Below the pieces are notes generated by a model. It was not told the DNA's origin. It ran no database searches and saw only the letters and a list, made by a program, of their open reading frames with translations. The translations under genes and the position numbers were made by a program. Positions 577-51,728 of a DNA stretch of 64,000 bases are shown here, in pieces (positions within the stretch are counted from its first letter, which is position 1; every line of letters begins with the position of its first letter). Source of the stretch: an uncultured Acidobacteriota bacterium (GTDB lineage: Bacteria > Acidobacteriota > Terriglobia > Terriglobales > Acidobacteriaceae); NCBI GenBank assembly GCA_963850425.1, contig CAWKLF010000008.1, positions 154,421-218,420 on the forward strand. Direction: 5' to 3'.

Positions 577-615
577 AGATTGACCTCAAGTCACGGAACG
601 ATACCGAAAAATTCT

Positions 616-632: not shown

Positions 633-680
633 TTTTTTAGGCTCCTGCGCTAGTGTATTGGCCCACAGACCATAGTCGGG

Positions 681-32886: not shown

Positions 32887-34221
32887 CTACTGGCTCGCTT
32901 TCTCGTACCGGCCGGCGCGAGAGAGTGCAGCACTGACCTTCTGCATTTGCGCCGCGAAGCGAGGAGCGTTGTATGCCGATGGATTGTCAACCTGCTGGAA
33001 TAGCCCTTTTATCGCTTCTCGCATGTCGGCATCGTTTGCGCCTTTGTTGTTTTGCATGTAGGCAGCGAAGAGCGAGTCGAGCGACATCGCGGCCTGCTCG
33101 GCTGCGCGTTGCCCCTGCACCGAGATCGAATCGCCATCCTGCGCGATTGATTTCATAACCGCGAGAGCGAAAGCTTGATCGTACGATTTCGCATTTAATT
33201 GCTGAGCAAATTGCGCCGCAGTCGCCGCAGCGTGAGTTGCCGTGCTCGCAATTTCCTGAGGACTGCCGTTGCGTGTGCCCAGCAAGGCCGCCAACTTCGT
33301 GATGTCCACATCCAACTGCTGAGCCTTATCAGGGCTGCTCCGTTTTGCAATGTGCCGGAAAACCACGTACCGCGATTGGTTCCAGGCGGCAACTCCTGGT
33401 TCCCTTCCGCCATAACCAACTTCTTGCCTCCAGCTGTCTTCTGGCTTGGTGAGGCTGTGGTGGCAAGCGAAGCAATCGAGTTCACCGTACTCCGGCCAGG
33501 AAGAACTTCCCGCCCGGCGCGCCAGTCGCTCCAATCCTTTTTGTAGTTGCACGGCTTCCCCGACGCCCCACACTTGCACGCCGCGCCATGCGTTATCGGT
33601 GGGCTCTTTCCAGTGCAGCGGCATGACCGAGCTGAACAGGTTGAGTTCGAAAGTTAAGTCCGGATGCCCGGCCGCGATCATCTCATGGTCGACAAACTTC
33701 TCCGAAGTTCCAAGGTGACAGGCCAGACACCGCTCGCTGCGCTTGATCAGGTCGCGCGTATCATACATTCCAAGCTGCACCGACTTTTCATGCGGCCAGT
33801 CCTTGGTGGTATGCGGCCCCAGCCATCCGGAAGCAGGACCGTGACAGCTTTCACAACTCACTCCATCGACGAGTTCAAAGGTTTCAGCGCGCTGCTCGCT
33901 CGGCACCGACAAGGCATGGCACGCCAGGCACTTCTGCGACTGATCCGGGCGTCCAATGTTAAGAATCTTCCCGATACGCAACGAGACTGCATTGGAGAGC
34001 ACCTGGTAAGCGCGCGCATGCTTGTCCTGTCCCGCCCAGATGCTGTACTCGTTTTGCGATACGTGGGTGATTTGCCGGGGCTGGATACTGCCATGACAGC
34101 TGCTGCTGGCGCATCCACCGGGCCCGTTGTATTTCCCGGTCGGTGCGTTTTGCGCAGAGGCACACGAGAGCAGTACCAGACACACGACTGCGTGCCATGC
34201 CGGGTTGGCCTTGTTGCGCAT
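32887..34221 (-). CDS. Periplasmic multiheme cytochrome c (4 CXXCH + 1 CX4CH)
   Basis: 444 aa. Signal peptide [15 protein letters not shown]. Motifs CASSSCH, CLACH, CESCH, CLACH, CFACH. C-terminal helical domain. Its stop lies 2 nt before the GH63 start. Confidence 0.8.
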
Positions 34222-34448: not shown

Positions 34449-36122
34449 TTGTTCGACCAACTCAGGGCGATTCAGCAGAAGTTTGGCTACTTGCCGGCTG
34501 ATCAACTCCACCAACTAGCTGCCCGGATCAACGTCCCGGTAAGCCAGATTCATACGGTCGCCAGCTTCTATCCTCATTTCCATCTGACCCCGCCTCCACG
34601 CGCGGAAGTGAAGGTTTGCGCCGACATGACTTGCCACCTCCGCGGCGGCCCGGAACTTAAAGCGGAGCTGGAACAAACCTTCCGAGGCAGCAGCCCCGAC
34701 GACGTTTCCATTCGCGACGTTTCTTGCCTCGGTCGCTGCGACAAAGCCGCCGCTCTCGCAATCAATGATCGGATTTATTGCGGACTGGACGCACGCGAGG
34801 CCGTCGCCATCGCGCGCAATGCAGCAGCCGGCCGTCCGCTTCCGCCCGAACCCCGCGATCGTCCGCAGGTGTCCGTAATCTCCGACCCATACTCTGGCGC
34901 CCCTAGTTACTCCCTGGTGCGACGCTTTGTAGAGACACGCGACTGGAGCAGCACCATCGCCACCCTGAAAGCCAGCGGCCTGCGCGGGATGGGAGGTGCG
35001 GGTTTTCCCACTGGCAACAAGTGGGAGATCGTTCGCAACGCCCCAGGCAAAGCCAAGTACATTGTCTGCAATGCCGACGAGAGCGAACCGGGCACCATCA
35101 AGGACCGGTTCATCATGGAAGCAGTCCCCCACCTGGTGATCGAAGGCATGATCATCGCGGGACTTGTCACCGGAGCACAGCAAGGCATTCTCTACATCCG
35201 GCACGAATACGAAGAACCGCGGGAAGTCCTTCAGCAAGAGATTGACCGCTGTTACCACGCCGGATTGCTCGGGAAAAAAATTCTGGGCTCCGAGTTGACG
35301 TTCGAGCTCGAAATCTTCATCAGTCCCGGCGGGTACATCTGCGGCGAAGAAAGTGCGCTTCTCGAGGCCATCGAAGGCAAGCGATCCGAGCCGCGCAACA
35401 AGCCGCCCTTTCCGGGAACCAATGGCCTTTGGAACCAGCCAACCGTCATCAATAACGTCGAAACATTTACGTTTGCGACTGCCATCCTGGCGCGCGGCGC
35501 CGACTGGTTCAAGGCTCAGGGCAAGAACGGGTCAGCCGGGATGAAATTCGTAGGCATCAGCGGGGACGTCAACTCCCCCGGCGTCTTCGAAGTGCCCATG
35601 GGCACGACGTATTCCGAACTCATTCACGAGAAAGCTGGCGGCATCGAGGGACAACGGAAGTTGCTGGCCTTCGCTCCTTCTGGCCCGTCGTCCGGTTATC
35701 TGCCCGCATCGATGGTGGACCTGCCACTCGACTGGAACGCCGTGGCGGCTGCCGGATCCATGGTGGGCTCGGGCGCCATCGTTGTCTGCGCCGAAGGCCG
35801 TTGCATGCTCGACATGGCGCTCAATGCTGTCCGTTTCTATCGAAACGAATCCTGCGGCAAGTGCGTTCCCTGCCGATTGGGATCGCAGAAGATGGTCGAA
35901 ATGCTAACTGGATGGACCGAAGGCCGATCAGCAAGCACAGATCGCCAGGTTCTCGATGAACTCTCCAGCGCGATGAAGCTGACCTCCATCTGCGGCCTGG
36001 GTCAGGTTGTTCCCGTTCCCATAGCATCCGTCCTAAAGCATTTCCCGGAAGTGGTCGAGGAACACATCACTGGCCGCCGCTGTCCCGCCGGTGTTTGCTT
36101 CACGAAGCGAGGCTCGGCATGA
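34449..36122 (+). CDS. NuoE-NuoF fusion: NADH-oxidising FMN/Fe-S flavoprotein
   Basis: 557 aa, TTG start. The N-terminus has a thioredoxin-like 2Fe-2S fold (CADMTCH ... SCLGRCD). This is followed by GLRGMGGAGFPTGNKW (FMN), YIVCNADESEPGT (NADH), YICGEESALLEAIEGKR, and ESCGKCVPCRLG ... SICGLG (N3-type 4Fe-4S). Confidence 0.85.
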   Translation: MFDQLRAIQQKFGYLPADQLHQLAARINVPVSQIHTVASFYPHFHLTPPPRAEVKVCADMTCHLRGGPELKAELEQTFRGSSPDDVSIRDVSCLGRCDKAAALAINDRIYCGLDAREAVAIARNAAAGRPLPPEPRDRPQVSVISDPYSGAPSYSLVRRFVETRDWSSTIATLKASGLRGMGGAGFPTGNKWEIVRNAPGKAKYIVCNADESEPGTIKDRFIMEAVPHLVIEGMIIAGLVTGAQQGILYIRHEYEEPREVLQQEIDRCYHAGLLGKKILGSELTFELEIFISPGGYICGEESALLEAIEGKRSEPRNKPPFPGTNGLWNQPTVINNVETFTFATAILARGADWFKAQGKNGSAGMKFVGISGDVNSPGVFEVPMGTTYSELIHEKAGGIEGQRKLLAFAPSGPSSGYLPASMVDLPLDWNAVAAAGSMVGSGAIVVCAEGRCMLDMALNAVRFYRNESCGKCVPCRLGSQKMVEMLTGWTEGRSASTDRQVLDELSSAMKLTSICGLGQVVPVPIASVLKHFPEVVEEHITGRRCPAGVCFTKRGSA

Positions 36123-38281
36123 GTACGAAGCCGGGCGCTGAGATCCAGTTGACGATCGACGGAACCAGCGTCTCGGTCCCGACGGGCACAACCATTTTCG
36201 ATGCCGCCCGCTTGAATGGAATTCCAATTCCCACTCTTTGCCACCAGCAGAACGAAAATCCGGTCGGAGTTTGCAGAGTTTGCGTGGTCGATATCGGCCA
36301 GCGTGTCTATGCGGCGTCCTGCATCCGGCAGGCTGAGCCGGGCATGAACGTAAAGACATGCTCCGATCCGGTGAAAGCGGCGCGCCACACGCTCATCGAA
36401 CTGTTGATGTCGGATCATCCCGCGCCCTGCGCTCGCCAGCAACACTCCGGCGACTGTGAACTGGAACGGCTCTCGGCAGCTACCGGGATCAGCGAGGTTC
36501 GCTTCCCAAAACGCTCCACTCCACGCGGAAAGGACGATTCCTCCGCGGTCATTGCCGTCGATCACGAATCGTGCATCCTTTGCGATCGCTGTGTGCGCGG
36601 CTGCGACGACATCCGCCACAACTGGGTGCTGGCGCGGCGCGGCAAGGGATATCAGGCAGGCATCGCCTTCGACACCAATCTACCGATGGCCGAATCGTCC
36701 TGTGTGTCGTGCGGGGAGTGCATGGTCTCGTGCCCCACCGGCGCGCTTACCAACAAGCGCGTCGTCGGAACCCAATTGGGCGAAGGCGAGGTTCTCGACC
36801 CCACGGAACTTCTCGGCCTGCCGATCTTCCAGAACGTATCTGGAACCTTCCTCGAACTCAATCAGAAGGCTGTAGTCAAGCGCCACTACCGGGCCGGAGA
36901 GATTATCTGTCGTGAAGGCGACTTCGGCTCAACCGCTTTCTACATCCTCGAAGGTAAGGCGGAGGTTTTTCTCGCAAGTCCCATGGCGCATGTAGAGACC
37001 AATGGCACCAGCCAGGGATTCTTCAGAAAGCTGAAGAGCATGCTCAGCACCCGTGGACAACACCGCCGCAGCGAAGAATCGGATCGGCCCTTTATCCCCA
37101 TCGATGCGTCCGTTGACCTTCCCTACGACCGGCCGATCGCCGACCTGAATCCTGGGGACCTGTTCGGCGAGATGACCTGCATGAGCTATTACCCGCGCTC
37201 GGCAACCGTGCGGGCCAAGACCGATTGCGTGATGCTCGAGATGCTGCGCAACGTCCTCGACATCCTGCAGCGGAACAAGACATTCCGGGCGCAGTTGGAA
37301 CGGAACTACCGGGCGCGCGCTCTTGATTCCCATTTGCGCAGCGTGCCCATCTTCTCGTCGCTCACCAAGGACTTCATCGATCACCTTCGCGACCGCGTCG
37401 AACTCCTGCGCTTCAGTCCCGGTCAGGTCATCTGCCGGCAAGGGGACGTGGCCGACAGCTTTTATCTCGTGCGCATCGGCTTCGTCAAAGTGTCCGAAGA
37501 TCGTCCCGGAGGCGAGTTGATCCTCGCTTACCTCGCGCGCGGAGGATATTTCGGTGAAATCGCCCTGCTCAGCGGAAGCCCAAGGACCGCCACCTGCACG
37601 GCACTCGACCACGTGGAAGTCGTACGCATCGCGCGTGATGACTTTGAATTGATGCTCGAGCGCTTCCCGGAAGTGCGCGCCAAACTTGAGGCCATTGCAC
37701 AGGAACGCGCCGCGGAGAATCGCCGCCGCACAGCTCAGTTGCAGACGCTGCCAGTTGATCAATTTCTCGCCAACGGCTTGATGGAAGCCCAGAGCCTGCT
37801 GGTTCTCGACCTGGAGCGCTGCACGCGCTGCGATCAGTGCGTACGCGCTTGCGCCGATGCCCACGACGGCGTCAGCCGCCTGGTGCGCGAAGGTCTACGC
37901 TTCGACAAATACCTGGTCGCAACTTCCTGCCGCCAGTGCCGCGACCCGCTATGCATGGTCGGCTGCCCCGTCGGTTCCATCCGTCGCCGGAATTCGCTCG
38001 AGGTCATCATCGAAGACTGGTGCATCGGGTGTGGATTGTGCGCGAACAATTGCCCGTACGGCAACATTAACCTCCACCCGTTCCCGGTGGAACTCGACGA
38101 TCCCGCGCATCCGGGACGGAAAATTGCCAGCACACGCGTCAAAGCAACCTCGTGCGATCTTTGTCACGATCACGCCGAGCCCAGCTGCGTTTATGCGTGC
38201 CCGCATGATGCGGCACATCGCGTGAACCCGCCCGAGTTCTTCGCCGGACTCCTCAAGCTGCCCAGCGGAGCAAAGGGCTAG
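36119..38281 (+). CDS. Multidomain Fe-S protein: NuoG-N-terminal-like 2Fe-2S + His-ligated 4Fe-4S + 2x[4Fe-4S], two cNMP-binding domains, then a C-terminal DmsB/NrfC/HybA-like polyferredoxin
   Basis: Start placed at ATG 36119 (ATGA overlap with the upstream stop). The N-terminus has IQLTIDGTSVSVPTGTTIFDAARLNGIPIPTLCH..CRVC..C, SDHPAPC..GDC, and CILCDRCVRGC / CVSCGECMVSCP. The cNMP phosphate-binding cassettes are FGEMTCMSYYPRSATVRA and FGEIALLSGSPRTATCTA. The C-terminus has CTRCDQCVRAC, CRQCRDPLCMVGCP, CIGCGLCANNCP and CDLC..PSCVYACP. Confidence 0.8.
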   Translation: MSTKPGAEIQLTIDGTSVSVPTGTTIFDAARLNGIPIPTLCHQQNENPVGVCRVCVVDIGQRVYAASCIRQAEPGMNVKTCSDPVKAARHTLIELLMSDHPAPCARQQHSGDCELERLSAATGISEVRFPKRSTPRGKDDSSAVIAVDHESCILCDRCVRGCDDIRHNWVLARRGKGYQAGIAFDTNLPMAESSCVSCGECMVSCPTGALTNKRVVGTQLGEGEVLDPTELLGLPIFQNVSGTFLELNQKAVVKRHYRAGEIICREGDFGSTAFYILEGKAEVFLASPMAHVETNGTSQGFFRKLKSMLSTRGQHRRSEESDRPFIPIDASVDLPYDRPIADLNPGDLFGEMTCMSYYPRSATVRAKTDCVMLEMLRNVLDILQRNKTFRAQLERNYRARALDSHLRSVPIFSSLTKDFIDHLRDRVELLRFSPGQVICRQGDVADSFYLVRIGFVKVSEDRPGGELILAYLARGGYFGEIALLSGSPRTATCTALDHVEVVRIARDDFELMLERFPEVRAKLEAIAQERAAENRRRTAQLQTLPVDQFLANGLMEAQSLLVLDLERCTRCDQCVRACADAHDGVSRLVREGLRFDKYLVATSCRQCRDPLCMVGCPVGSIRRRNSLEVIIEDWCIGCGLCANNCPYGNINLHPFPVELDDPAHPGRKIASTRVKATSCDLCHDHAEPSCVYACPHDAAHRVNPPEFFAGLLKLPSGAKG

Positions 38282-39217: not shown

Positions 39218-40583
39218 ATGCTGCGAAGAATACGCACCACCAAAAAACTCGCGCGGCGCATCGATCTCCAGTACTTCAAGCACTCTCATCCGCTCCGACG
39301 ATGGCGATTCTGGCTCTCGGTAGCCGTACCGGTGATCGCAATCGGCTGGCTCCTTACCCAGCGCGCGCAAGGCGGCCAGAAAGCATATTCCAGCGGCCCG
39401 CTCTCGGCTTCCCACGCCGTTTTCACTCAGCAGTGCAGCCTCTGTCACGTGACGCGCAGCTGGAGCATTCTTCAAAGAGGTCACCGACAACGCCTGCCTA
39501 ACTTGCCACGATGGTCCGGTGCACCACGCCAACCAGGTGTTCACGCCTTCCTGCTCATCCTGTCACATCGAACATAAGGGGTCGGCCCGTTTGGCGGTCA
39601 CGTCGACGGCCAGTTGCACCCAATGCCATGCATCCCTTCATACCCGCGACGGTCAGCCACACTTTGCCGTGGCGATCTCCGGTTTCAATCGCACTCACCC
39701 TGAATTCTCTCCGACAACGAAGCACATGACCGACCCCGGCCAGGTGCGCCTCAATCACTACCTGCACATGAAGCCGGAGCTCGTCGGCCCGAACAGCCAG
39801 CGAGTTCAAATGGCTTGCGAGGACTGCCATCGTTTGACCGGAGTCCAGGATCACTTTCCGTATGCGGGTGAGTTGGCTCAAACCACGACCTCGAATGACC
39901 CGAGCATCGCAAAGCTCTCGCTCATTTCCGCCACAATGTCCCCAGTGAGGTTTGCGAACCATTGCGCGGGCTGCCACACGCTCCAGTTCGACGCCCGGTT
40001 TGCAGGGCAGCAAGTGCCGCACGAAAAGCCTGAATTCATCCATGCCTTTCTCGTAAAGCGCTTTCAGGAATACATCGCGGCGAATCCTGCGGCAGTTCAT
40101 CAGATCGAGCCGCCGGGCCGGGGAGTTCCACGGCGTGACCGGCCCGTCCGAATCGCGCGAAATGGTGAGGAATGGGTACAGTTCCGCGTGGATGATGCCG
40201 AATGGCTCCTTTGGACTAAGACCTGCAAGCAATGCCACGCCATCAACTCTGCCGGCAGCGCTTTGCCCGAGATCGTTCCGTCACAAATTCGTTCCCGTTG
40301 GCTGGAGCATGCGACTTTCGATCATCATGCGCACCGCATGATGTCCTGCACCTCCTGTCATGGAAAAGCAATCGAGAGCCATGACACAGCGGATCTCTTA
40401 CTACCCGAAATTGAGACCTGCCGAGAGTGCCACCGTGATCAGGCTGGATCGAAAGAGGTTGCGGAAGGGCGCTGCTTTGAATGTCACCAATATCATGACT
40501 GGAGCAAGGCCCGCAGAACGAAAGGCCGTTTCAGCATTCCTGAGCTCCGCGGAACTGCGCAATTGCAACCTCCGCGGCGTTAG
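39218..40583 (+). pseudogene. Membrane-anchored decaheme cytochrome c, split by an apparent +1 frameshift at ~39450-39470
   Basis: ORF 39218..39577 gives a TM anchor (WRFWLSVAVPVIAIGWLL) plus CSLCH and then degenerates. Frame 0 is open from 39453 and reads RAAGAFFKEVTDNACLTCHDGPVHHANQ..., with no start codon before the GTG at 39519, so the CLTCH motif would be orphaned. ORF 39519..40583 adds CSSCH, CTQCH, CEDCH, CAGCH, CKQCH, CTSCH, CRECH and CFECH. The total is 10 CXXCH. Confidence 0.75.
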
Positions 40584-40608: not shown

Positions 40609-43600
40609 TTATTCGCTGGCCTTTTGAGCGCCTGGCGCAGCTGGCGGGTCATCTGTGACCGTGAAAAGATGACCATCGCGTAGATACATTCTCTCCATCT
40701 CTGCCTGATTGAATGGACGCGAGCCGCGCCGGCCAAAAACCGCCAACTGGTTCCCACTCTCATCCACCGCCCGATCGCGATCAATGCCCCTGGAAACTGC
40801 CAGGGCCGCGTCGCGTGTCCTGTAACCAGCAATCCACTTCGGCGTGGGCCTGGGACTGAACCCGCTGAATGCGGGGTTGTCCACCGGAGAGAACAATTGC
40901 ACGACCTGCAGCCCGTTCTTGCCATCGGCGACGTACGCGAACAAGCTCGAACTGACCATACCCAGCTTCACATCGTTCGAGTCCTGCAACCGGCCGCCAG
41001 CGTTAAATATTTGATCCAGCTTTGGTGACTCCGGATGTTCCACGTCAACAATCGCGAGTCCCTTTCGTCCTGCCGCGACGTAAGCATACGTGCGTGCCAC
41101 GTAAAGATTCCGCGCATCGTCGATCGCCACCTGCCCTCCGGGTAGTGGCTTCGGCTGATCAAGAGCGGTCACATCGAGCACCTTTAACCCCTCCCGATCC
41201 ACCACAAACGCATAACGGAATTGAATGGCGATTCCCCGAGGTTCCAGGAGCGCAGGGGGTCCAATCTCTGCAGTGACCTTTGGCTGCAGCGGGTTGTCGA
41301 TATCGACGACGACCAACCCGCGATCACACAAAACGTACGCATAGGTTCCGGCAATCGCGATACGACGCGCGCCGTTCAGGATTCCGTTCGGATTGAATGC
41401 CAGTGCTCTCTTAAGGAAGTTGTTCGCTGGATTCCCATCGAGCAGTGTTCCCACTCCCGGACTCTTGCTCTTAAGGTCTGGATTGCCGACGATCACCAGA
41501 CCCTCATATTTGTCCGCCACGTAAAGAAACCCGTACATCAAGTGAATCGTCTGCTCCTCGTTTTCCTTTCGATGAGACCGCAGCGGGTCCACTCCTAAAG
41601 TGGTCGGACTTGCGACAGCCATCGCATATTTGGTTGGCAGATAAAACCGCTGTCCCAGTGGCGACACGGGAGCCGTCACAACCCGTTCTGAGATGTCCTT
41701 GTTGTCGACATTGGCGATATCAAAGACCCGCAAGCCGCCCTTGCCCATCGCGGCATACAAGTATTCGCCGCGCGCTTGGACGTCCAGAACTTCAGACCCC
41801 GCGTGGTGGTAGGCCTCCCTCAATTTGCCGTCGCCCTCGAGGTGCTTCTTATAGTTCTCGGGATAAGCGATCTTCTGAAAATCGCTGCCCAACACCGCGG
41901 GCGGTTCCTCGTGCTCGGTCACGGCAATTGTTTCAAATCCACTCTTCCCGTCCGCAACGAACACATAACGCCCCATGAAATTCATGAAGCCCGTGCCCTG
42001 CAACAACAGTTGGGCCATCCATGCATTATTGTCGTGGGCTCGCGAGACGTGGCAGTCCGTGCAGCCCTTGGTTTCTCTACCGCGAACGGTGTGCGGCACA
42101 AACGTTGAGAAAGCCTGCCCGCTGAACCCCTCCGCTGAGATCGTTTGCTGCTGGGAGTAGAGCCAGTCGCGATCGCTATTCTGCGAACTCACGACAACCG
42201 CACATGCGGATCGAACCGGCGCAACGCGATGCCCGGTGACCGTCCCGTCGATTCCAAGCGTGTAGATGTCGTCGCGCAATACCTGGAAGTTGTACGAGGT
42301 CCAGTTGCGCGTCGTCAGGCCCTCGTTGTGCAGCATGGGCGTCCGCTGGTTCGCGGTCATCGACAGATGACATCCGTAGCAAGTGGGTGCCCAGGAGGAG
42401 TGACACGCGTAGCACGTCATACGGCTGTTCGCGTGCGCCAGTTCCGACTGATCTGTGGGAACTTCTCCCCACGACACTCCATCCTGCTGGATGGTCTTCG
42501 CCAGCCGCGACTTCTCGCTGTAGTGTTGGTTGCCGGGCGTGATCGTATCGACAACCTGCACGACCTCCCATTCCGTATGCTCGTCGAGCATCGACCGCTG
42601 GTAGAGATGATCTTCTTTCCAGTAGAAACGGCGCTCTTTCCAGGGCGTTCGCAATGCAGCCAGGTTCGTTCCGTGCTCGGGAGCCGCTATGCCCGAAGTG
42701 ATCAACGTCGACTTCTGCTGCACGGTGCCATGGCAATCCACACAATCGATCTCAACCGCGTTCCGCGTCTCCCCATAAAGCTTGCCGTTGCCATGGCTGT
42801 CCTGTTCAAAATGGCAATCGATGCAGTGCATGCCCTTTTCAAGATGAATGTCCTTGAGATGGACAGCCTTGTTAAATTTCTCCGCATCATTGAACGCGAC
42901 CGGCTTGTCTTCGCTGTCCAGCAGCGTACCCTTGCGATCGTGCTTGAAGGCCGCGCGGAAAATCCAGCCGTGGCTGTGGAAGTCGGCAAACTGTGTGTGC
43001 TCGAGTTTCTTGTTGAACTCGGGCGTCCCGGTTTTTTCTAGAAAATTCACGTCGGACCACAGTCCGCGCACCGCCGACCCCTCAGGATTGCGAGCTTCAA
43101 TCCGGCTGCGTTCCTCTGCCTTCGGGTGCCTTTGTTGCATGGGCCACATGTACTTCCCGTCCATTTCGTTGTCCCACCACGTATAACCGAAGTACGTCGC
43201 TACCATGTTCGTGCCCGGATGGATGTGACAAACCATGCACTGGCTGGACGGAATGGACCGTGTGAACTGGTGGCGAATCGGATGGCCAGATTCGCCGTGC
43301 GGAATGGTAGGATCCTGCGTCGCGCTCTGCCCCAGGTTGCCGTACTCCGCGGATGAGCCGGAATGATCCTTGGATCGATCGTTCGCATAGACCACGTGGC
43401 ATCCGCTGCAGCCGCTGGCGCGATAGTCCCCTGGATGATCGTTCGTCCCGGGAAACGACAGCAGTGGATCGAGCAGTCGAGTCTTCTGCAGCCCGAGAAA
43501 TACTGGATCTGTCCGCAACTCGGTACCGAATCCGCGCTCGCTGAGCTTGATTTCCGGCTTCCCCGGATCTTCTTCTAAATCAGGATTCCCGATCTCCGCG

Positions 43601-44355
43601 CGCTTCCGTCCGCCGCGTTCAAACACGCGCAACACATTCCCCGGTTGTGAAACCTCCCATCGTTGCAGCGGTTCGAGGAAGGGCAAAACACCTTTTTTCT
43701 CGATCTCTTCAGCCGTAGGAGCTGGAAACGTCATAAGCCGCCGCGGTCGCCCATCTTTCCCGTAGCTCTCGCCGAATTGTGGAGACTTCAATGGAAACGC
43801 ACCGTTGTTGTAAAGCGCTGCTCCCCACAGCATGGCGCCATGAGTCATCATGCTGGTCTGCACCTTGCGGACCTCCGCCGAATGACACCCGCTAAGCCCG
43901 CAAGTCTTTTCTGCAACGCGAAGATCGCCAGGGTTCACAAAGCGCACATAGTCCCAATCCTCCCGTAGCCACTCGGTGTAGGCGCGCTCGGGATTAGCCG
44001 GCGATGAAAGCAAAATCCTGGGCTGAGGATGGGCTCGCTTCTTGTCTCGTTCGTACTCGGCCGACTTGGGACTCCCTCCCTGGCTCACATGAATCTCAGC
44101 ATTGCCTCCGTGACAATCGATGCACCCCAGTCGCACCGTTCCCGTCGAATGCATAGTCGCGCTGTCGGTTGAGGTATGGCAGGTCACACATCCGCTGGAT
44201 TTGCGATCCGCATCCGCCTGCGACTGCTGCAACAGAATGTTCTCGGGAGGAGGCTGCGATTGAGCGTGTCCCAAAGAGCACGCCGTAGCCAGGGCGCAAT
44301 GCAACAAGGCGAGAACAATTATTTTCAAAGTTCGCGAAGCGGCGCTCAGGGACAC
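40609..44355 (-). CDS. Large secreted multiheme cytochrome c (9 CXXCH + 1 CX4CH) fused to a C-terminal LVIVD-repeat beta-propeller
   Basis: The ORF track runs to 44805, but that overlaps the upstream gene (stop at 44555). I favour the GTG at 44355, giving [31 protein letters not shown]|QS as a signal peptide. The start is uncertain (alternatives 44499 and 44550). Heme motifs are CVTCH, CIDCH, CGLSGCH, CSGCH, CMVCH, CIDCH, CVDCH, CYACH, CYGCH and CTDCH. The last ~480 aa carry repeats such as [47 protein letters not shown] and NGLQVVQL. Confidence 0.75.
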
Positions 44356-44554
44356 ATTTTGGTTCAAGCACTTCTTCTCGCCCTTTGCGCATTCCTTAGC
44401 TTCCTTTGCCGTCAAGAGCTTTTTGTCCACGCCCGATGCGGAACCATTGAACGTCGCAGCCCCAGCGGACGAACTCCAGCCATTTACTCCGCCGAACATG
44501 ACGCGGAACGATATTCTTGCCGCGGTCCTCTTGATCAGTGCGTGGACCATATTC

Positions 44555-46772
44555 CTAAAATTGAAATCGAACATTCCCGAACAACGAGAACAGCGTCTGA
44601 CCGTTGTAGATTTGCTTAAGGCCTTCGGCTGGAACCAGTGCAGATGCCCCGCCTCGCACAACAATGTTCTCCGACAGAGGTGGCCGGTATTCAACCCCGA
44701 CTCCACAATCTGTTCCAATGCCGTGCTCGATCGGCCTCTGGAACAGCACCAATTCCAACGGTTCTGTCCGATCAAAACGCAAGTAGCTTGTGTTGGCGAA
44801 GGCACGCAACTTGGGCGTGAGATTAAAGTCAGCTCCCAGATTGAACACCATCACCCCAGGGTTGACGAAGTTGGCTTGCCCCTCTTCTTTATTGGAGCGC
44901 AAGTTCGGCAACAAACTTATGGGTGTGGTCAGCGCCAGGCCGGTCCCCGTCAACCGAATACCTTCGCTGTTCCAGAAGCTGAAGTCAGAGCCGCCGAAAT
45001 GCGTGTCGTCAACAATGGAGTCGAACGCGTGAGCCGTACCGTCAGTCCGGGCCGCGCCTGACCGGTTGCTCGAGTCGCCCGACGCATAGAAAAACGAGGC
45101 GCGGTATCGTGCCCAATCTTTGTCGATCGAAAGCTCGACGGCTCCCATGCGCGCGTTGATATCGACTCGACGACCGGCAAGCGTGTTGAAGTCGTCATGA
45201 CCCAGCGCCTGGTAGAACGCATGGCTGACATTCAGACGTCCGATGTGGCCGTTGCTGGCCCATCCCACGTAATAGGCTCGAATCGGGTGTGTACGAATTG
45301 TCCCGTTCACGACTGCCCCAATCGGAGCGGGCCGCACCAGGAAGCCGTTGTCGTCAAAGTGCACACCACCATCGTCGCGGTTGTAGTGGAAACTGAACTC
45401 GGTCGTGTACCCCTTGGCCAGGAAATCCTGCACGTAAACGTTGGCGACGTAGACTTGCTGATCCCGCTTTTGAAAGGTATTGAGCCCGCTGTTTGTGTTC
45501 TTCTCGAGAAAGTAGAACCACGCCAGGTTGTAAGCAATCCGGTTCGAGCGCAGATTTCCAAAAATACGAATGCCCGGCTGTTCTTCGGAAAATAGAAACC
45601 CACGGAAATCGCTCGTGAATTGCTGAATCCCTGCTCGAATCGAAACAAAATCGTAGTTTGGACTCAGGTCGCGCAACTTTGCTTCGACAAACGCCTCCTG
45701 CACCCCCACATGAGCATCGAAGCGATCCGTTCCCTTGCGCGGATCGATGTTGACGATTCCCCGTTCGCGCGCCTGCAGGAAATTCAAATTGACTTCCGGC
45801 GTAAAGCGAAACCGCAGATCCGCCGGCCGAAAGCTGGTGTCGCCTCGAAACAGGTCGAGCGAGAAACGCAAAGTTTCCGACGCAAGAAGCTTGTTCTCCC
45901 CGCCCAAAAAATCCGCTGCTGCCCGGATTCGCAGTGTCCACTCCGCTCGGTACCGGCAGCCGTCTCAAGTCCACGCCGGTCTGGCTCCTTCCAGTCACAT
46001 TCAGAAACCAGCGCTGCCCGAAAATCGGATAGTCTCCTTTGAGCTTGTTGCGGTTGAAAGGGTCATACCAGCGACCCTTCACATAAGGCGCGTCCGACTG
46101 GGTTTCATAGCGGCGCCACTCGGGCATCGCGACGTCCCAACGGTCGGGAGCCGGTTCAAAGTTCGCAGAGTCGGGCGGAAGGGACTCGGTTGGCTGGAGG
46201 GACGCCGATTTCTCGGGTGCAGGATTTCTAAGGCCTGGATACGCACTCCCTTGGGGTGTCGGGCCAGCGGGTATCCGCGAGCCTCCGGGCACTCCGGAAA
46301 CGCCTTTCGGTGGAGTGGCCGTCGTCCCTAAAGCCTTGATCTTCAACTCCAACACGACCAGACCGGCGGCACTCACTTGCACGCGTTCCACCACCAGAGG
46401 CTCGTATCCCTCGCGCACTGTGCGAAGTTCATACGCATCGAGGGGCACATCCCGCAGGCGAAAAATTCCCTCTGCATCCGTCGTAGTTTCAAAACTTGAT
46501 CCGTTCGATAGTGAACGAATCTTCAGCGCAACGCCGGGAACAGCGCGATCCTCTTCGTCGCGCACCCGCCCTTGCAAGCTGGCCTTCGCCGGAGTGGAGC
46601 GCTCCGGAATGCGACGCGCCGGCGGAAGCTGGGCCGTCGAATAGTCGGGTTGTTGCCCGAGCACAGTGCCCAAGCCTGCCAGGGACACGCATACCATTCG
46701 CAGTGACCACACTCCGATTCGCGCCCCAAGCCTTTGGGGCACACGCCCGCCCATCCGCACTTGTCCCACCAT
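44555..46772 (-). pseudogene. Outer-membrane beta-barrel protein with an N-terminal carboxypeptidase-regulatory-like domain, split by an apparent frameshift at the A6/T6 run 45906-45911
   Basis: ORF 45354..46772 is meaningful up to ...NPGSSGFFGRGEQ and then becomes Arg-rich nonsense. It includes a signal peptide and a QGRVRDEEDRAVPGVALKIRSLSNGSSFETTTDAEGIFRLRDVP CarbopepD_reg-like domain. ORF 44555..45907 continues in the other frame (GGENKLLASETLRFSLDLF...) as alternating-pattern beta strands ending ...LFGNVRFQF, with the C-terminal Phe typical of OMPs. Confidence 0.7.
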
Positions 46773-48468: not shown

Positions 48469-50826
48469 TTACTTCGACTTCATGACGTGTACGCCGTCCC
48501 AGCCAGTTTCCGGCGCATGTTCACGGAAGTCGAGCGCTCGCTGCAGGAAGATCTGTGTTGGCCCATCGTCAGGAAACGATGTCAGCAACGTTCCGAACTG
48601 AAGAACTGCCTCATTCCAATCCTGTTCACGATAGGCCGCCATTGCGCTGGCGAACTGTTCCAGCAGCACACTGTATTTCGCGTGATTTTCAGCGCCATCC
48701 AGTAGTTCGTAGATCGCCACTGGCTGCAACTTCCCCTTCACCCGAATTCGATCGAGATCTCTGCAGACAAACTGCTGTGCGACCTGGCGGTAAGTCCCTT
48801 CGCTGATCACAACGCGGACCCGGTACTGCTTGGTCATCCCTTCCAAACGCGACGCCAGGTTCACGTTGTCGCCCATGACCGTCCACGCCAGTCGCTTATC
48901 GGACCCCATGTTGCCCACGTTAACCGGACCCGTATTGAGCCCGATGCCAATCGAAATCGGTTTCCTACCTTCAGCTTTCCACTTTGCATTCAGCTTTTCA
49001 AGGCTGCGCGACATCTCCAGCGCGCAACTGCAGGCGCGGGTAGAGTGGTCGTCCTGGGGATAAGGCGAGCCCCAGAAAGCCATGATGGCATCGCCAATGT
49101 ACTTGTCGAGCGTACCCAGATTTCGGAAAAGGACATCAGTCATCTCGCCGAGATATTCATTGAGCAAGTGAACCAGTTCATCGGCACTCAAGCCTTCGGA
49201 AAGCGCCGTGAAGTCGCGAATATCGCTGAACATCACAGTCAATTCTTTCGTCTCACCACCCGGACGAATGTACCTTTGCGGATCCTTCTCGATCAGCCCG
49301 ATCACGCCCGGCGACAGATATTGTGAGAATGTCTTCCTGATCTTGCGCTTCTCGCGCTCCTCGAAAATCATGCGGAAGCTCGTGATGGCTGCGTAGTTCG
49401 CCACCAGCGTCGTAGCCGGTATCGCAAAACTCAGCCAGCTTCCCCAGCGCACGAAGCTGAAATAGACGAACCAGCCAAACGCCGCAAGAACGAGGATCAA
49501 AGCCACCGTCGAGTACAACGGCTTAACCTTCCCGAACCAGATTCCCATGCCAGTGCCGAACAGCAGGATGAACGCGATGTCGATCATCTCCTCGCGCGCG
49601 CCACGAGTCAGGAAGCTCCGTCCGGCTTCCCCGCTGTGCAGCAGGTTGTCGATAATGTTGGCATGCACCTCGACCCCCATGTACGCGTCGCCATTCTGGA
49701 AGGGCGTAATCCGAAGATCGCCAATCGCCTTGGCGGTCGCCCCAAACAACACGATCTTGTTCTTGAACGCATCAGGGGGAGTAGAGCGCGAGATCACATC
49801 CCACATGGAGTAGTGCGGATAGCTTCCATAAGGGCCGACATAGTTGATAATTGCCGTCCCATCGCGCGAGGGACGCAGGGGATGCGAGCCAAATTGAATC
49901 CGCTCGAGCCCGTTTTCGGCGATATAGGCTGCGATCTCCTGATCGGGAATTTGCTCAAACTCACGCAATACCTGCATGGCGAGCGAGGGAAAGAAGTCCT
50001 GATCGCGATACCGCATAATCAAAAGCGCGTGCCGCAAGGTTCCATCCGGATCAGGATTAATATCGATGAAGCCATAGGATACAGCTGCTTCGGCAAGCTT
50101 CGTGATGTTCGCTTCGGCGCCCGCCGCCACTGTGCCGCCGCTATTCACCCAGGCCTGCGCCAGATCAAAGTCCTTGCCATCCTTCGATTTGACCTTCAGT
50201 ACCTGGGGGAATGACTTCGCCCACACAATGTTGAAGTACTCTTCCTCGAGTTTGGGATTGGAGTTCTTGGCGCGCTCCGCATCAAGAAACAGATGCCCTA
50301 AAACCACATTGCCAGAAGCCTTGAGTGAAGCGGCAAATGCGCCGTCCTGGTCGCTCTCGATCTTCAGGCGCTTGATCTCCTGATCAACACTGGAAGGAGC
50401 GGATGCGCCGAGGTTCGCCTGCAGCTTGTTTAGCGCCTGAGTTGCAGAATTGCTTTCCGGAGTCGGGAACGTGGCATCGAAGGCTACCACGCGCGCACCT
50501 TCTGCGCTGAGTCGCTTTACCAACTCGGCATACGCACGCCGAGGAAGCGGAAACGATCCCTCGTGCATCAGCGTCTTCTCATCGATGCCGACGATGACAA
50601 TTCGTTCGTCAGGCTTGCGCGATCCGCGCAGTTCGAACCGGGTGTCCAGCAGGCTTTGTTCTACGTTCTGAAGAAAGAGAAAGCCGGCACCACGATTTCC
50701 GCCGATGCCGGCAAATGCAAACAGGAGCAATCCGCCCGCCGTAACCAGTAGTGCCAGAGCCACGTCAACCTGGCGAGTCGATATCCGGCTCAACCACTGG
50801 GACCAGCGCTGCGAATTTGGCGTCAT
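48469..50826 (-). CDS. CHASE2-domain membrane sensor fused to a class III adenylate/guanylate cyclase, with a C-terminal helical-repeat tail
   Basis: 785 aa. N-terminal TM helix plus a periplasmic CHASE2 region (IVIVGIDEKTL...), three TM helices, then a cyclase core (TVMFSDIRDFTALSE ... KYIGDAIMAFWG ... GLNTGPVNVGNMGS ... WTVMGDNVNLASRLE). Confidence 0.85.
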   Translation of the reverse strand: MTPNSQRWSQWLSRISTRQVDVALALLVTAGGLLLFAFAGIGGNRGAGFLFLQNVEQSLLDTRFELRGSRKPDERIVIVGIDEKTLMHEGSFPLPRRAYAELVKRLSAEGARVVAFDATFPTPESNSATQALNKLQANLGASAPSSVDQEIKRLKIESDQDGAFAASLKASGNVVLGHLFLDAERAKNSNPKLEEEYFNIVWAKSFPQVLKVKSKDGKDFDLAQAWVNSGGTVAAGAEANITKLAEAAVSYGFIDINPDPDGTLRHALLIMRYRDQDFFPSLAMQVLREFEQIPDQEIAAYIAENGLERIQFGSHPLRPSRDGTAIINYVGPYGSYPHYSMWDVISRSTPPDAFKNKIVLFGATAKAIGDLRITPFQNGDAYMGVEVHANIIDNLLHSGEAGRSFLTRGAREEMIDIAFILLFGTGMGIWFGKVKPLYSTVALILVLAAFGWFVYFSFVRWGSWLSFAIPATTLVANYAAITSFRMIFEEREKRKIRKTFSQYLSPGVIGLIEKDPQRYIRPGGETKELTVMFSDIRDFTALSEGLSADELVHLLNEYLGEMTDVLFRNLGTLDKYIGDAIMAFWGSPYPQDDHSTRACSCALEMSRSLEKLNAKWKAEGRKPISIGIGLNTGPVNVGNMGSDKRLAWTVMGDNVNLASRLEGMTKQYRVRVVISEGTYRQVAQQFVCRDLDRIRVKGKLQPVAIYELLDGAENHAKYSVLLEQFASAMAAYREQDWNEAVLQFGTLLTSFPDDGPTQIFLQRALDFREHAPETGWDGVHVMKSK

Positions 50827-50900: not shown

Positions 50901-51728
50901 TCATCCACACAGCTTGGGATTTGGATTGGTCTGGCAATTCGGGACTCGCGGCAAGGCCGATCCGCCGCTTGAATTCAGCTGCGTATATCCAACTGCCCAT
51001 CCCGTAGCCGCCGCTCCGATACCGATGATCAGGTTGCGCACCAGGTGCGGATGCACCGAGGGCAGGGGCCCATCGGGCACGTTCGTATCGGTCATGCTAG
51101 CCTGCAGTAGATCCGAAGACGCCGGATTGGATTGGAATCCCGCCGCAGCCAGGGCCGAGCTAATGACCACCATCTGGCCCTCAGATACGGCGATCGAATT
51201 CGAACTTGCATCGGCCTGCCCTGAATTCTTCATGATCTTCGCATTGCCCGAGGGCGTGACCATGACTTTGCCGCGATAACAAATGACCGTGGTCCGGTCG
51301 GCATCGTAACCAACATAGAAGTCTGTCCCGACCACGCCGATCACCGCGTTCGGCGTCTTGATCTCAAATTTTCCGTTAGGCTGGGTGATTTTCACGACCT
51401 TGCTGCGCACCTTGCCGAAATTCATTTCCAGCGATGTCTGTTGCGAAGCCGCATCGTGCTGCACCACGCGCAGCTCGCTGTTGGAGCCCACGCTCAGGAT
51501 CGAACCGTCTTTCAAACCGGCGCGCAGACGGCCCGATTTCTGCGTCTGCAAAAGGTCGTTCCAATCCAGATCGTCTTTCACCTTGGCAGGCTTGGCATTT
51601 CGCGTCGCATCGGGCACAAGCGCATTGATCTGTCCTGCGTGGTCGCCCGAAGCCGACTGACAAACGGCCGGAAATGGCGAAAGTAGCAGGCAAAGTAGGG
51701 CCGCGGTCAATCGTTTATAGGTATTCAA
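50901..51728 (-). CDS. Secreted FecR-domain protein
   Basis: 275 aa. Signal peptide, then RLRAGLKDGSILSVGSNSELRVV ... FEIKTPNAVIGVVGTDFYV. Lies upstream of, and co-directional with, the CHASE2 cyclase. Confidence 0.75.
   Translation of the reverse strand: MNTYKRLTAALLCLLLSPFPAVCQSASGDHAGQINALVPDATRNAKPAKVKDDLDWNDLLQTQKSGRLRAGLKDGSILSVGSNSELRVVQHDAASQQTSLEMNFGKVRSKVVKITQPNGKFEIKTPNAVIGVVGTDFYVGYDADRTTVICYRGKVMVTPSGNAKIMKNSGQADASSNSIAVSEGQMVVISSALAAAGFQSNPASSDLLQASMTDTNVPDGPLPSVHPHLVRNLIIGIGAAATGWAVGYTQLNSSGGSALPRVPNCQTNPNPKLCG

Follow-up and report, generated by a model that had tools for sequence, protein, structure and literature searches.

Gene and domain architecture of the CNB-ferredoxin protein

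Within the 64,000-nt stretch of DNA analysed here (the window), one gene places two cyclic-nucleotide-binding (CNB) domains between the Fe-S modules of a predicted electron transfer protein, raising the question of what a putative second-messenger receptor does in such a position. The coding region is a single plus-strand open reading frame (36095 to 38281; 728 aa counted from TTG). The ATG at 36119 is the likely start, because homologues are ~720 aa long and this ATG overlaps the stop codon of the upstream NuoE-NuoF (NuoEF) gene as ATGA. The operon junctions are tight, with this overlap followed by gaps of 5 and 10 nt. An AlphaFold2 model of the protein reached a pLDDT of 83.6 and a pTM of 0.77. 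The module boundaries proposed in the earlier note fall in this frame: nt 36143 to 36748 correspond to aa 17 to 218, nt 36815 to 37669 to aa 241 to 525 (both CNB domains), and nt 37796 to 38224 to aa 568 to 710. Coordinates of the protein, its parts, and its neighbours are collected in Table 1.

Table 1. Features of the CNB-ferredoxin island and of the nearby cyclase locus, with the evidence for each
Feature	Coordinates	Strand	Evidence
Cytochrome c554-like multihaem cytochrome, divergent from operon	32887..34221	-	Pfam Cytochrome_C554 E 6e-12
NuoE-NuoF fusion, NADH/FMN dehydrogenase input module	34449..36122	+	Pfam, NCBIfam
HoxU-like Fe-S module + CNB1 + CNB2 + four-cluster ferredoxin	36119..38281	+	Pfam, NCBIfam, AlphaFold2
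HoxU/HydA/NuoG-N-terminal-type module	36143..36760	+	Pfam, NCBIfam, Cys positions, Foldseek
CNB domain 1, aa 241-405	36815..37309	+	Pfam cNMP_binding; Foldseek PKA-R/PKG tandem CNB
Insertion within CNB1 beta-barrel, aa 295-351	36977..37147	+	Model, TAF-to-GE distance
CNB1 phosphate-binding cassette FGEMTCMSYYPRSATVRA, aa 357-374	37163..37216	+	Family alignment
CNB domain 2, aa 406-545	37310..37729	+	Pfam aa 439-523; model
CNB2 phosphate-binding cassette FGEIALLSGSPRTATCTA, aa 486-503	37550..37603	+	Family alignment
HycB/HydN/DmsB-type ferredoxin, four predicted [4Fe-4S] clusters	37796..38224	+	Cys conservation, PDB relatives, NCBIfam
Membrane protein, 306 aa, five predicted helices	38287..39207	+	His pairs, weak Pfam matches, conserved adjacency
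Membrane-anchored decahaem cytochrome c, PtdG-like	39218..40583	+	Two overlapping ORFs; Pfam Cytochrome_C7, Paired_CXXCH
Large multihaem cytochrome with LVIVD beta-propeller repeats	40609..44805	-	Pfam LVIVD E 4e-26; CxxCH motifs
Outer-membrane beta-barrel (probable), N-terminal CarboxypepD_reg	44555..46772	-	Pfam
CHASE2-domain class III adenylate cyclase	48469..50826	-	Pfam CHASE2 E 5e-59, Guanylate_cyc E 1e-26
FecR-domain protein adjoining cyclase	50901..51728	-	Pfam FecR E 1e-18

Pfam confirmed that Fe-S modules flank the CNB pair on both sides. At the N terminus, it detected Fer2_4 (aa 15 to 88, E = 8.5e-17) and Fer4_Nqo3, and two ferredoxin-type 4Fe-4S motifs lie at aa 152 to 222. The ligands of the [2Fe-2S] cluster are C49/C60/C63/C76, and those of the two [4Fe-4S] motifs are C160/163/166/170 and C203/206/209/213. 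Foldseek matched this module to HydA, FdsA, and Nqo3 with an rmsd of 2 to 3 Å across ~215 residues. The clusters had earlier been called NuoG-like; this holds for the presence of the Fe-S module and fails for the His-ligated cluster of NuoG (N5/FS4C, H-x3-C-x2-C-x5-C). That motif is incomplete here (H108, C112, Q115, C121), with Gln in place of the middle Cys, and throughout the family: it was complete in 0 of 39 aligned members, and Pfam NADH-G_4Fe-4S_3 scored 24.6 on the degenerate site against a cutoff of 27. On this basis, the only cluster sites in the module are those for one [2Fe-2S] and two [4Fe-4S]. Scores fell below the NCBIfam equivalog thresholds for both HoxU (165 bits versus 333) and NuoG (115 versus 470), and orthology with either is rejected.

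The C-terminal module carries four Cys groups of the CxxCxxCxxxC(P) type (C576-586, C612-624, C643-653, and C687-702), with Pfam Fer4 dicluster matches at aa 606 to 706. All 16 of these cysteines are conserved in at least 118 of 126 sequences. The NCBIfam HydN profile matched at E = 5e-17 with a score of 62, below its cutoff of 260, and this is a family-level match only.

Conservation of the tandem CNB domains and their cassettes

The two CAP/PKA-type CNB domains reported earlier are genuine. Pfam cNMP_binding (PF00027) matched at E = 2.3e-41, its 140.1 bits exceeding the gathering score of 27.5; the match falls into three stretches for two domains because an insertion splits CNB1. The modelled pair resembles the eight-stranded beta-barrel CNB fold with its flanking helices, and Foldseek aligned it with the tandem CNB-A/B domains of cAMP- or cGMP-bound PKA-R and PKG (E ~1e-17). 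In the AlphaFold2 model, the long C-terminal helix of CNB2 (helix residues 517 to 541) runs into the ferredoxin module and is followed by a low-confidence linker.

The CNB1 insertion, previously estimated at ~50 aa, is also real: the distance from the TAF to the GE motif is 81 aa in the window protein versus 32 to 44 aa in insertion-free family members (P0164, P0171, and P0243 lack the insertion). Family-wide, this spacing ranges from 32 to 134 aa. The insertion is partly disordered (pLDDT < 50 at model residues 293 to 299 and 310 to 318), and its distal motif, IPIDAxVDL...PxAxL, recurs within the family.

Both phosphate-binding cassettes that the earlier note had quoted, each with its Arg, were found in the protein, with the cores FGEM...PRSAT in CNB1 and FGEI...PRTAT in CNB2. 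In canonical cassettes, the Gly-Glu pair contacts the ribose 2'-OH and the Arg contacts the phosphate. Loss of the cassette Arg and Glu from orthologues had been named beforehand as evidence against a regulatory role. Among 134 representatives that are at most 50% identical and come from at least three phyla, the Gly-Glu and Arg of both cassettes were instead kept in 85 to 100%. By non-gap counts, G358, E359, and R368 of CNB1 were conserved in 124/124, 120/124, and 122/129 sequences, and G487, E488, and R497 of CNB2 in 128/129, 115/128, and 107/126. Two cysteines in or beside the cassettes that belong to no cluster are conserved as well: C362, inside the CNB1 cassette (110/126), and C501 (87/127).

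Fusion history of the family

Domain composition across the family reveals how the CNB pair came to lie between two Fe-S modules. Of the top 150 representative clusters, 58 contain the HoxU fusion, 50 the CNB-CNB-ferredoxin core alone, 13 an FHA domain or other N terminus, and 1 a NuoEF-HoxU-CNB-Fd chain. HoxU is a separate upstream gene in locus L081 and is absent from L085 and L086; in P0182, NuoEF is fused to HoxU-CNB-Fd in one chain. The conserved ancestral unit, an invariant core of the family, is thus CNB-CNB-ferredoxin, to which HoxU has been fused in the window protein. The earlier description of a CNB pair inserted into the middle of an Fe-S subunit does not stand, since the pair is the conserved N-terminal part of a protein that occurs alone in one-third of the top clusters.

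This history bears on the mechanism first proposed, in which a cyclic nucleotide would open or close a gap within the protein, from the last cluster of HoxU to the first of the ferredoxin. Such a hinge has some appeal, given that in the fused proteins nothing but the CNB pair joins the Fe-S modules covalently and that the HoxU fusion is common. However, the CNB pair and its cassettes are equally conserved in proteins without the HoxU module, and they are also conserved in L081, where HoxU is a separate polypeptide. Conservation that is independent of the fusion cannot reflect a function specific to the HoxU-ferredoxin gap, and we regard the hinge as unlikely. Because CNB-CNB-ferredoxin exists without a fused HoxU, any regulation concerns the ferredoxin module and its partners generally rather than a single intramolecular gap.

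A second alternative gives the CNB pair a structural role, as a scaffold or dimerisation module that binds nucleotide constitutively or never, leaving electron flow free of second-messenger control. CNB-fold domains serve as nonsignalling scaffolds in some proteins, and the pTM of the model suggests a rigid, compact assembly. Had ligand binding not been under selection, conservation of the Gly-Glu and Arg in both domains would nevertheless be difficult to account for, which argues against a scaffold. So do the additional signalling domains that some members have acquired at the same position, namely, FHA domains, a PilZ-like insertion, or an extra CNB domain. The FHA and PilZ-like additions mark the CNB-ferredoxin protein as a signalling target, and we consider the scaffold reading improbable.

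Conserved membrane and cytochrome partners

The upstream NuoE-NuoF fusion comprises a thioredoxin-like [2Fe-2S] domain, an FMN site, and a 4Fe-4S domain (Pfam 2Fe-2S_thioredx, Complex1_51K at E = 2e-41, and NADH_4Fe-4S; NCBIfam nuoF_fam at E = 3e-131). Its gene adjoins the CNB-protein gene in 78 of 80 and in 72 of 80 related loci.

Immediately downstream, the membrane-protein gene adjoins the CNB-protein gene in 78/80 and 69/80 loci, as well as in distant contexts. Four histidines of its product are invariant and form two pairs (H81/H95 and H285/H299), 14 residues apart in each. Pfam matches over 14 orthologues were weak but convergent, pointing to families of di-haem b cytochromes, cytochrome b561 among them (DUF4405 in 11/14, Ni_hydr_CYTB in 5/14, and Ferric_reduct in 2/14 with a best E of 8.5e-6); every match of the window protein itself was under the gathering score (DUF4405, E = 0.052), and those of the orthologues were weakly significant. 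A homologue, P0297, is named [quoted passage not shown] by NCBI. Foldseek returned no matches at E ≤ 0.001 for the weak model of the membrane protein (pLDDT 65.8). From its histidine pairs and profile matches, it is probably a transmembrane di-haem b electron conduit, ferric reductase-like and PtdF-like (see below), and it is the likely acceptor for the ferredoxin module.

Multihaem cytochromes complete the island. The decahaem cytochrome is an intact single ORF of ~454 aa with 10 CxxCH motifs in L001; in the window, it is read in two frames owing to a 1-nt insertion near nt 39458, seen as a 1-nt gap relative to L001 to L003. The gene for the probable outer-membrane barrel is likewise split by a 1-nt indel in the window, visible as one alignment gap, and it forms a single ORF of ~730 to 750 aa, ending in ...RFQF, in L001, L002, and L006. 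If these frameshifts in two island genes are real and not assembly errors, the window copy of the conduit is defective. The c554-like cytochrome recurs in 71/80 and 46/80 loci and also in distant contexts, and the LVIVD cytochrome in 61/80 loci as well as in L085, L086, L088, and L089. Across Acidobacteriota, Planctomycetota, and further lineages, the CNB-protein gene keeps genes for the membrane protein and a multihaem cytochrome beside it.

These partners weigh on a third alternative, that signalling runs in reverse: the Fe-S clusters would sense the redox or NADH state and alter the cyclic-nucleotide affinity or partner binding of the CNB pair, making the protein a redox-dependent cyclic-nucleotide receptor or buffer. 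The FHA and PilZ-like variants suggest a place in a signalling network, C362 and C501 could be redox reactive, and the P0182 fusion lacks cytochrome and membrane-protein neighbours at its locus. Elsewhere, the partnership with the membrane protein and multihaem cytochrome is near-universal, extending to NuoEF in many lineages, and speaks for bulk electron flux; for a sensor, as many as seven clusters in a chain would also be excessive. We judge reverse signalling very unlikely.

Candidate ligand and nearby cyclase

Both the CHASE2 adenylate cyclase and the FecR neighbour described earlier were recovered by Pfam. The cyclase is the only one in the window. Its closest solved relative is CyaB (3r5g, E = 5e-43), and it has Lys/Thr at the substrate-specifying positions. 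The FecR gene co-occurs with the cyclase in L030, L033, L050, L073, L078, and L153, and the island is bordered by genes for a cyclase, a cAMP phosphodiesterase, or both in the window, L081, and L088. Co-occurrence of the CNB protein with cyclases, which the earlier note had proposed as a check, is common among close Terriglobia relatives, where a cyclase lies near the CNB-protein locus in 20 of 87 loci, and rare in the diverse set (2 of 80), a rarity that would also suit a scaffold. Cyclase proximity is thus lineage specific and the tie to the CHASE2 cyclase speculative; this enzyme is a possible source of the ligand for the CNB pair.

That the domains bind another nucleotide or metabolite in place of cAMP or cGMP is highly improbable: the CNB fold of the CRP/FNR superfamily is ligand promiscuous, with members that sense haem, 2-oxoglutarate, and other effectors, and CNB1 has an unusual variable insertion and a conserved cassette Cys, but both cassettes fit the canonical signature F-G-E-x...P-R-[ST]-A-T, and the best matches in sequence and in fold are to PKA-R and PKG domains with bound cAMP or cGMP.

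Proposed mechanism

The reading that we prefer, and to which we give an even chance of being right, is that the window protein takes in electrons on the cytoplasmic side of a conduit that spans the envelope independently of quinones and in which coupling of the ferredoxin module is gated by a cyclic nucleotide. The NuoE-NuoF fusion would oxidise NADH, and the electrons would enter the [2Fe-2S] and two [4Fe-4S] clusters of the HoxU-like module and move from there to the C-terminal HycB-type four-cluster ferredoxin. The ferredoxin would reduce the putative di-haem b protein, which would carry electrons across the membrane to the membrane-anchored decahaem cytochrome and on to the c554-like and LVIVD multihaem cytochromes and the outer-membrane barrel. 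Since NuoEF and HoxU are missing from many family members, lineages may differ in their electron donor and even in which way the electrons run.

Within this conduit, the CNB pair would act as a PKA-R-like tandem sensor; by descent, it goes with the PtdE-like ferredoxin half of the protein. When a 3',5'-cyclic nucleotide binds, with cAMP as the likeliest candidate, the CNB2 C-helix and the attached ferredoxin module could be reoriented, so that coupling to the donor (HoxU), to the acceptor (the membrane cytochrome b), or to both would be switched on or off and NADH would be drained to the outside only on signal. As judged from sequence, such gating of electron flow is plausible. More tentatively, we suggest that the ligand, probably cAMP, comes from envelope-sensing cyclases such as the CHASE2/FecR pair and that its binding repositions the four-cluster ferredoxin as a valve on a conduit from NADH to an extracellular acceptor. 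If true, a second messenger would here be seen for the first time to gate an electron transfer chain directly at the protein level, by a valve mechanism common to hundreds of species in several phyla. The CNB-ferredoxin architecture itself is real, widespread, and unstudied, and it represents a new type of output for CNB domains.

Comparison with known systems

The individual modules have well-characterized relatives. HoxU, the HydA N-terminal domain, FdsA, and NuoG share the [2Fe-2S] ferredoxin fold and the 2x[4Fe-4S] ferredoxin domain of the window protein, which, like HoxU-type systems, is partnered by a NuoE/NuoF-type flavoprotein. Sequence matches include HoxU (E = 2e-48) and group A6 hydrogenase (E = 8e-60), with every score below the curated equivalog cutoff. 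Unlike HydA- and FdsA-type proteins, the window protein has no catalytic H-cluster or Mo-pterin domain. The ferredoxin module shares the typical spacing of its four Cys groups with HycB, HydN, NrfC, and DmsB, and its nearest solved relatives are HycB3/HycB4 of HDCR (7qv7), HycB of formate hydrogenlyase (7z0s), and NrfC/PsrB (2vpw). Subunits of the HycB/NrfC type serve as electron relays linking a catalytic module with a partner or membrane subunit. In contrast to those systems, the ferredoxin module of the window is fused behind two CNB domains, and a small, His-rich membrane protein takes the place of an NrfD/PsrC-type or hydrogenase membrane subunit.

The closest counterpart in gene order is the ptdABCDEFG cluster, whose PtdC-G module has been described with its function unknown. 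That cluster encodes a CNB protein with 4Fe-4S clusters, then a ferric-reductase-like transmembrane protein, then a decahaem cytochrome, and it also contains additional multihaem cytochromes together with an outer-membrane barrel or porin (bioRxiv 10.1101/2023.11.21.568154, 2024). Likened by gene order and description, the window matches PtdE-F-G in running from CNB-ferredoxin to membrane protein to 10-CxxCH cytochrome. It differs from Ptd in its donor, which is a NuoE-NuoF fusion with the HoxU module fused straight to the PtdE-like protein; in its accessory cytochromes, which are c554-like and LVIVD type; and in its host, a soil Terriglobia acidobacterium rather than a marine proteobacterium, a member of the Nitrospirales, or a planctomycete.

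As a functional analogy only, exporters of the NOX/DUOX and MsrQ type also connect a cytoplasmic NAD(P)H dehydrogenase to a di-haem b helix bundle that crosses the membrane; the window membrane protein is assigned to the ferric reductase family by weak profile matches only. In NOX5 and DUOX, the switch is a fused sensor of the second messenger Ca2+. In the window, by comparison, the dehydrogenase is Fe-S/FMN based and on separate chains, and the sensor would be the CNB pair.

The CNB pair itself is most similar to CNB-A/CNB-B of PKA-R and PKG, which likewise consist of two contiguous domains with canonical cassettes. The Foldseek matches reached TM scores of 0.43 to 0.48 normalised to the target (4z07, 5j3u, and 1rl3), and phmmer gave E ~1e-23 (3of1). 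We rejected identity as a PKA regulatory subunit, given that a HoxU-type module precedes CNB1, that the operon encodes no kinase partner, and that the likeness is confined to the tandem CNB arrangement. The partly disordered insertion of 40 to 50 aa in CNB1 further sets the window protein apart from PKA-R and PKG. In those proteins, ligand moves the B/C helices and thereby releases or activates an attached effector; the window protein has no kinase, pseudosubstrate, or docking domain, and its effector would be the four-cluster ferredoxin.

Architecture of the fusion protein

The fusion protein is encoded by a single ORF of 728 amino acids, counted from a TTG codon (see the table below). Because homologues are about 720 amino acids long and the upstream gene ends in a stop codon that shares an ATGA overlap with the ATG at 36119, this ATG is the likely start. 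Two cyclic-nucleotide-binding (CNB) domains lie between two Fe-S modules, and the nucleotide ranges that the earlier note assigned to these parts translate exactly to the modules detected by Pfam. N-terminal sites for three clusters account for 12 of the 36 cysteines, and another 16 fall into four C-terminal CxxCxxCxxxC(P)-type groups. From an alignment of 53 sequences, AlphaFold2 gave a confident model (mean pLDDT 83.6, pTM 0.77), with disorder only in an insertion within the first CNB domain (CNB1) and in the linker preceding the ferredoxin. Foldseek matched the N-terminal ~215 residues to HydA, FdsA, and Nqo3 (rmsd 2-3 A) and the middle of the protein to the tandem CNB-A/B domains of PKG and PKA regulatory subunits. 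The closest solved relatives of the ferredoxin module were HycB3/4, HycB, and NrfC. Among the solved structures matched, none spans more than one module. Chance or an annotation artifact was rejected as the origin of this arrangement, given an E value of 2e-41 and a full-length architecture kept in hundreds of genomes.

The N-terminal clusters had been described as NuoG-like. Three cluster sites are indeed present, but the motif for the His-ligated [4Fe-4S] cluster of NuoG and HydA appears in the window protein as H108-x3-C112-x2-Q115-x5-C121, without its middle cysteine. The complete motif was never found across the family, and some subgroups are without any cysteine at the site; this cluster has probably been lost family-wide. 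Identification of the protein as NuoG itself was rejected: it has no Mo-pterin-like domain, its N5 motif is incomplete, and its scores fall under the equivalog cutoffs.

Coordinates of the fusion protein, its modules, and neighboring genes in the window, with conservation of the genes across 80 Terriglobia genome loci and 80 diverse metagenome loci
Feature	Window (nt)	Residues (aa)	Strand	Terriglobia loci	Metagenome loci	Remarks
GH63/MGH1-like glycoside hydrolase	30191-32884		-	49/80		adjoins cytochrome island
c554-like cytochrome	32887-34221		opposite to operon	71/80	46/80	
NuoE-NuoF fusion (NuoEF)	34449-36122			78/80	72/80	first operon gene
Fusion protein ORF	36095..38281		+			
Fer2_4 [2Fe-2S] domain		15-88				Pfam
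NADH-G_4Fe-4S_3		97-136				Pfam, sub-threshold (24.6 bits vs cutoff 27)
His-ligated cluster motif, incomplete	36416-36457	108-121				
Two ferredoxin-type 4Fe-4S motifs		152-222				Pfam
CNB1 cassette		357-374				
Cys362	37178-37180					
cNMP_binding		second domain 439-523				Pfam, three stretches, E 2.3e-41
CNB2 cassette		486-503				
Cys501	37595-37597					
Fer4 dicluster matches		606-706				Pfam
Membrane protein, 306 aa	38287-39207			78/80	69/80	downstream of fusion protein gene
Membrane-anchored multihaem (decahaem-type) cytochrome	39218-40583		+	78/80	61/80	after membrane protein gene
Multihaem LVIVD-repeat protein, 1398 aa	40609-44805		opposite to operon	61/80	11/80	
Probable outer-membrane barrel	44555-46772		-			CarboxypepD_reg N terminus; C-terminal ...RFQF in relatives
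514-aa protein	51936-53480		+			C-terminal HbpS-like haem-degrading/haem-binding domain; just past FecR-cyclase pair

Distribution and origin of the architecture

Scanning all 1.84 billion representatives of a library clustered at 50% identity yielded 1650 representative clusters at E <= 1e-30, a count that takes in matches that are partial or cover only a domain. Relatives occur in at least 568 species-level genomes. Members of the family are abundant in Acidobacteriota of soil and peat, and others come from Planctomycetota and Ca. Riflebacteria; they carry only the public names "cyclic nucleotide-binding domain-containing protein" or "CRP-like cAMP-binding protein/ferredoxin."

We mapped four modules on the best 150 representatives, using non-overlapping best matches (ferredoxin motifs cross-match). 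The arrangement of the window protein, with a HoxU-like module followed by CNB-CNB and ferredoxin, was found in 58 clusters. CNB-CNB and ferredoxin made up the whole protein in 50 clusters and followed some other N terminus (FHA, Pro/Ala-rich regions, or an extra CNB) in 13, whereas a single cluster (P0182, 1483 aa) joined NuoE, NuoF, HoxU, CNB-CNB, and ferredoxin in one chain. In the genome encoding representative P0146, the HoxU-like module has a gene of its own (395 aa), which comes after NuoEF and immediately precedes, with an overlap, the gene for CNB-CNB-ferredoxin. NuoEF and HoxU are both absent from the gene contexts of P0176 (from a Planctomycetota MAG) and P0193 (from another genome). 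Fusion and fission events tie NuoEF, HoxU, and CNB-CNB-ferredoxin together. Given these architecture counts and gene contexts, the CNB pair is part of the ferredoxin half, and the window protein is a CNB-CNB-ferredoxin protein to which HoxU was fused. This corrects the earlier proposal that CNB domains had been inserted into an Fe-S subunit, as the CNB-CNB-ferredoxin unit occurs without HoxU.

Several relatives depart from these layouts. The P0182 contig is planctomycete-like (PSCyt2, PSD1, and DUF1501 neighbors), and neither a membrane-protein nor a cytochrome neighbor was found on it. P0131 (616 aa) has a PilZ-like insertion (RRSLR...NLSNHG) within the second CNB domain (CNB2), P0142 (locus L084, 2463-4682) has two FHA domains at its N terminus, and CNB domains number three or four in P0153, P0184, and P0175. 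P0183, P0240, and P0270 are giant proteins (2651-3779 aa) with 11-13 tandem CNB domains and no ferredoxin module.

Conservation of the CNB sites

Both phosphate-binding cassette strings quoted in the earlier note are present in the window protein. Across 133 representatives aligned with it and counted at non-gap positions, the cassette Gly, Glu, and Arg were conserved in 124/124, 120/124, and 122/129 sequences for CNB1 and in 128/129, 115/128, and 107/126 for CNB2, with the Ala-Thr after the Arg conserved to a similar degree. Orthologues thus retain the Arg and Glu, whose loss the earlier note had named as a refuting observation. Because these residues are conserved, both sites look selected to bind a ribose-cyclic-phosphate. 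The ~50-aa insertion previously described in CNB1 is real but varies within the family: the TAF-to-GE interval ranges from 32 to 134 aa, the insertion is absent in some members, and its only recurring part is the distal motif IPIDAxVDL...PxAxL.

Three non-cluster-ligating cysteines are also conserved: Cys362, inside the CNB1 cassette (110/126 sequences); Cys501, beside the CNB2 cassette Arg (87/127); and Cys272 (95/124). They could act as redox-reactive thiols within the ligand sites.

Operon and cytochrome island

The operon genes are tightly packed in the window; conservation of the island genes in the two sets of 80 loci is given in the table. In distant contexts too, the CNB-CNB-ferredoxin gene is followed by genes for the membrane protein and a multihaem cytochrome. 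The GH63/MGH1-like gene also adjoins the island at two loci of a distant lineage, L081 (14067-16754) and L088 (861-3569).

Pfam searches with the 306-aa membrane protein gave no significant match. Fourteen orthologues gave weak matches that converge on DUF4405 (11/14), prokaryotic cytochrome b561 (5/14), and Ferric_reduct (2/14; best E 8.5e-6), and the NCBI name of one homologue is that of a ferric reductase-like transmembrane protein. H81, H95, H285, and H299 are invariant in the 14 orthologues, forming two pairs with 14-residue spacing in predicted helices. The AlphaFold2 model was weak (pLDDT 65.8, shallow alignment), and a fold search of the PDB with it returned nothing significant. We infer from the histidine pattern and family matches that this protein is a putative di-haem b conduit.

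Two island genes are interrupted in the window. The decahaem cytochrome is intact in the closest relatives (loci L001-L003) as one ORF of ~454 aa with 10 CxxCH motifs; relative to these, the window copy has a 1-nt insertion near nt 39458 and occupies two frames, which may reflect either an assembly error or a pseudogene. Likewise, the probable barrel gene comprises two overlapping ORFs (1-nt indel) that form one gene of ~730-750 aa in L001, L002, and L006, where the C-terminal ...RFQF is of the kind typical for outer-membrane beta-barrels. The presence of two frameshifts in the island points to sequence-quality problems.

Linkage to cyclase genes

The neighboring CHASE2 class III cyclase has the adenylate cyclase CyaB as its best solved relative (E 5e-43) and carries Lys and Thr at the substrate-specifying positions, a pattern established for adenylate cyclases of class IIIb. 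The 64-kb window encodes no second cyclase, nor any CNB protein besides the fusion protein. At 12/80 Terriglobia loci, an orthologous cyclase was located no more than ~10 kb from the operon, in positions that differ between loci. At L081 and L088, which belong to another lineage, a cyclase together with a class II cAMP phosphodiesterase flanks the island; the PDEase_II genes lie at 16933-17593 and 1-770, respectively, with the class III cyclase within ~5 kb of the operon in each. Family-wide linkage to cyclases and phosphodiesterases was rejected: any cyclase domain was present at 20/87 loci among close relatives, whereas an HMM search of six-frame translations from the diverse metagenome sample detected a cyclase at 2/80 loci and a phosphodiesterase at 1/80. 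Cyclase proximity is therefore lineage-specific. Because a cyclic nucleotide (cNMP) acts in trans, such proximity neither establishes nor refutes a functional link.

Proposed mechanism and comparison with known systems

All Fe-S modules are cytoplasmic, as the protein has no signal peptide or transmembrane segment and has an NADH-oxidizing partner. The partnership with the His-rich membrane protein and periplasmic cytochromes is conserved, and the ligand-binding motifs are intact. In the model that we propose, electrons would pass from NADH to FMN, along the Fe-S chain to the HycB-like ferredoxin, and then through two b haems across the membrane to the cytochrome network without involving quinones. 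Because a conduit of this kind would conserve little or no energy, it would need control, which the CNB pair is positioned to supply. A conserved FLxQGL linker joins the C-terminal helix of CNB2 (model residues 517-541) directly to the ferredoxin; in analogy to PKA-R and PKG, a bound ligand would be expected to shift this helix. We give roughly even credence to the general model that the fusion protein is a cNMP-controlled electron input module. The version in the earlier note, in which cNMP gates the intramolecular gap between the two cluster sets, seems to us less probable than this general model since proteins that lack HoxU, or have it as a separate chain, conserve the CNB pair just as well.

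Control of respiration and extracellular electron transfer is usually ascribed to transcription and substrate availability. If the CNB pair regulates the wire, post-translational second-messenger control would be added to these processes. The NADH-to-multihaem-cytochrome conduit would bypass the quinone pool and could therefore matter for the reduction of iron and humic substances in soils. CNB domains are known from effectors such as kinases, ion channels, transcription factors, exchange factors, acetyltransferases, and encapsulin shells. To our knowledge, no Fe-S electron-transfer protein is among them, and none demonstrated as such was found in the literature searched. The novelty of the fusion protein would lie in a CNB-domain effector whose output appears to be an Fe-S electron-transfer module.

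Real as well as ancient and widespread, this architecture has one passing mention in a preprint and has never been characterized. A literature search for a characterized cNMP/Fe-S fusion or an acidobacterial LVIVD-cytochrome electron-transfer system returned only this 2024 preprint, on the ptd cluster (bioRxiv 10.1101/2023.11.21.568154). According to the preprint, marine Proteobacteria, Nitrospirales, and Planctomycetes carry the cluster, whose function is given as unknown. The preprint describes PtdE as a cyclic nucleotide-binding protein with 4Fe-4S clusters, PtdF as a ferric reductase-like membrane protein, and PtdG as a decahaem protein; by this description, the PtdE/F/G core is the equivalent of the CNB-ferredoxin, membrane protein, and decahaem core of the window.
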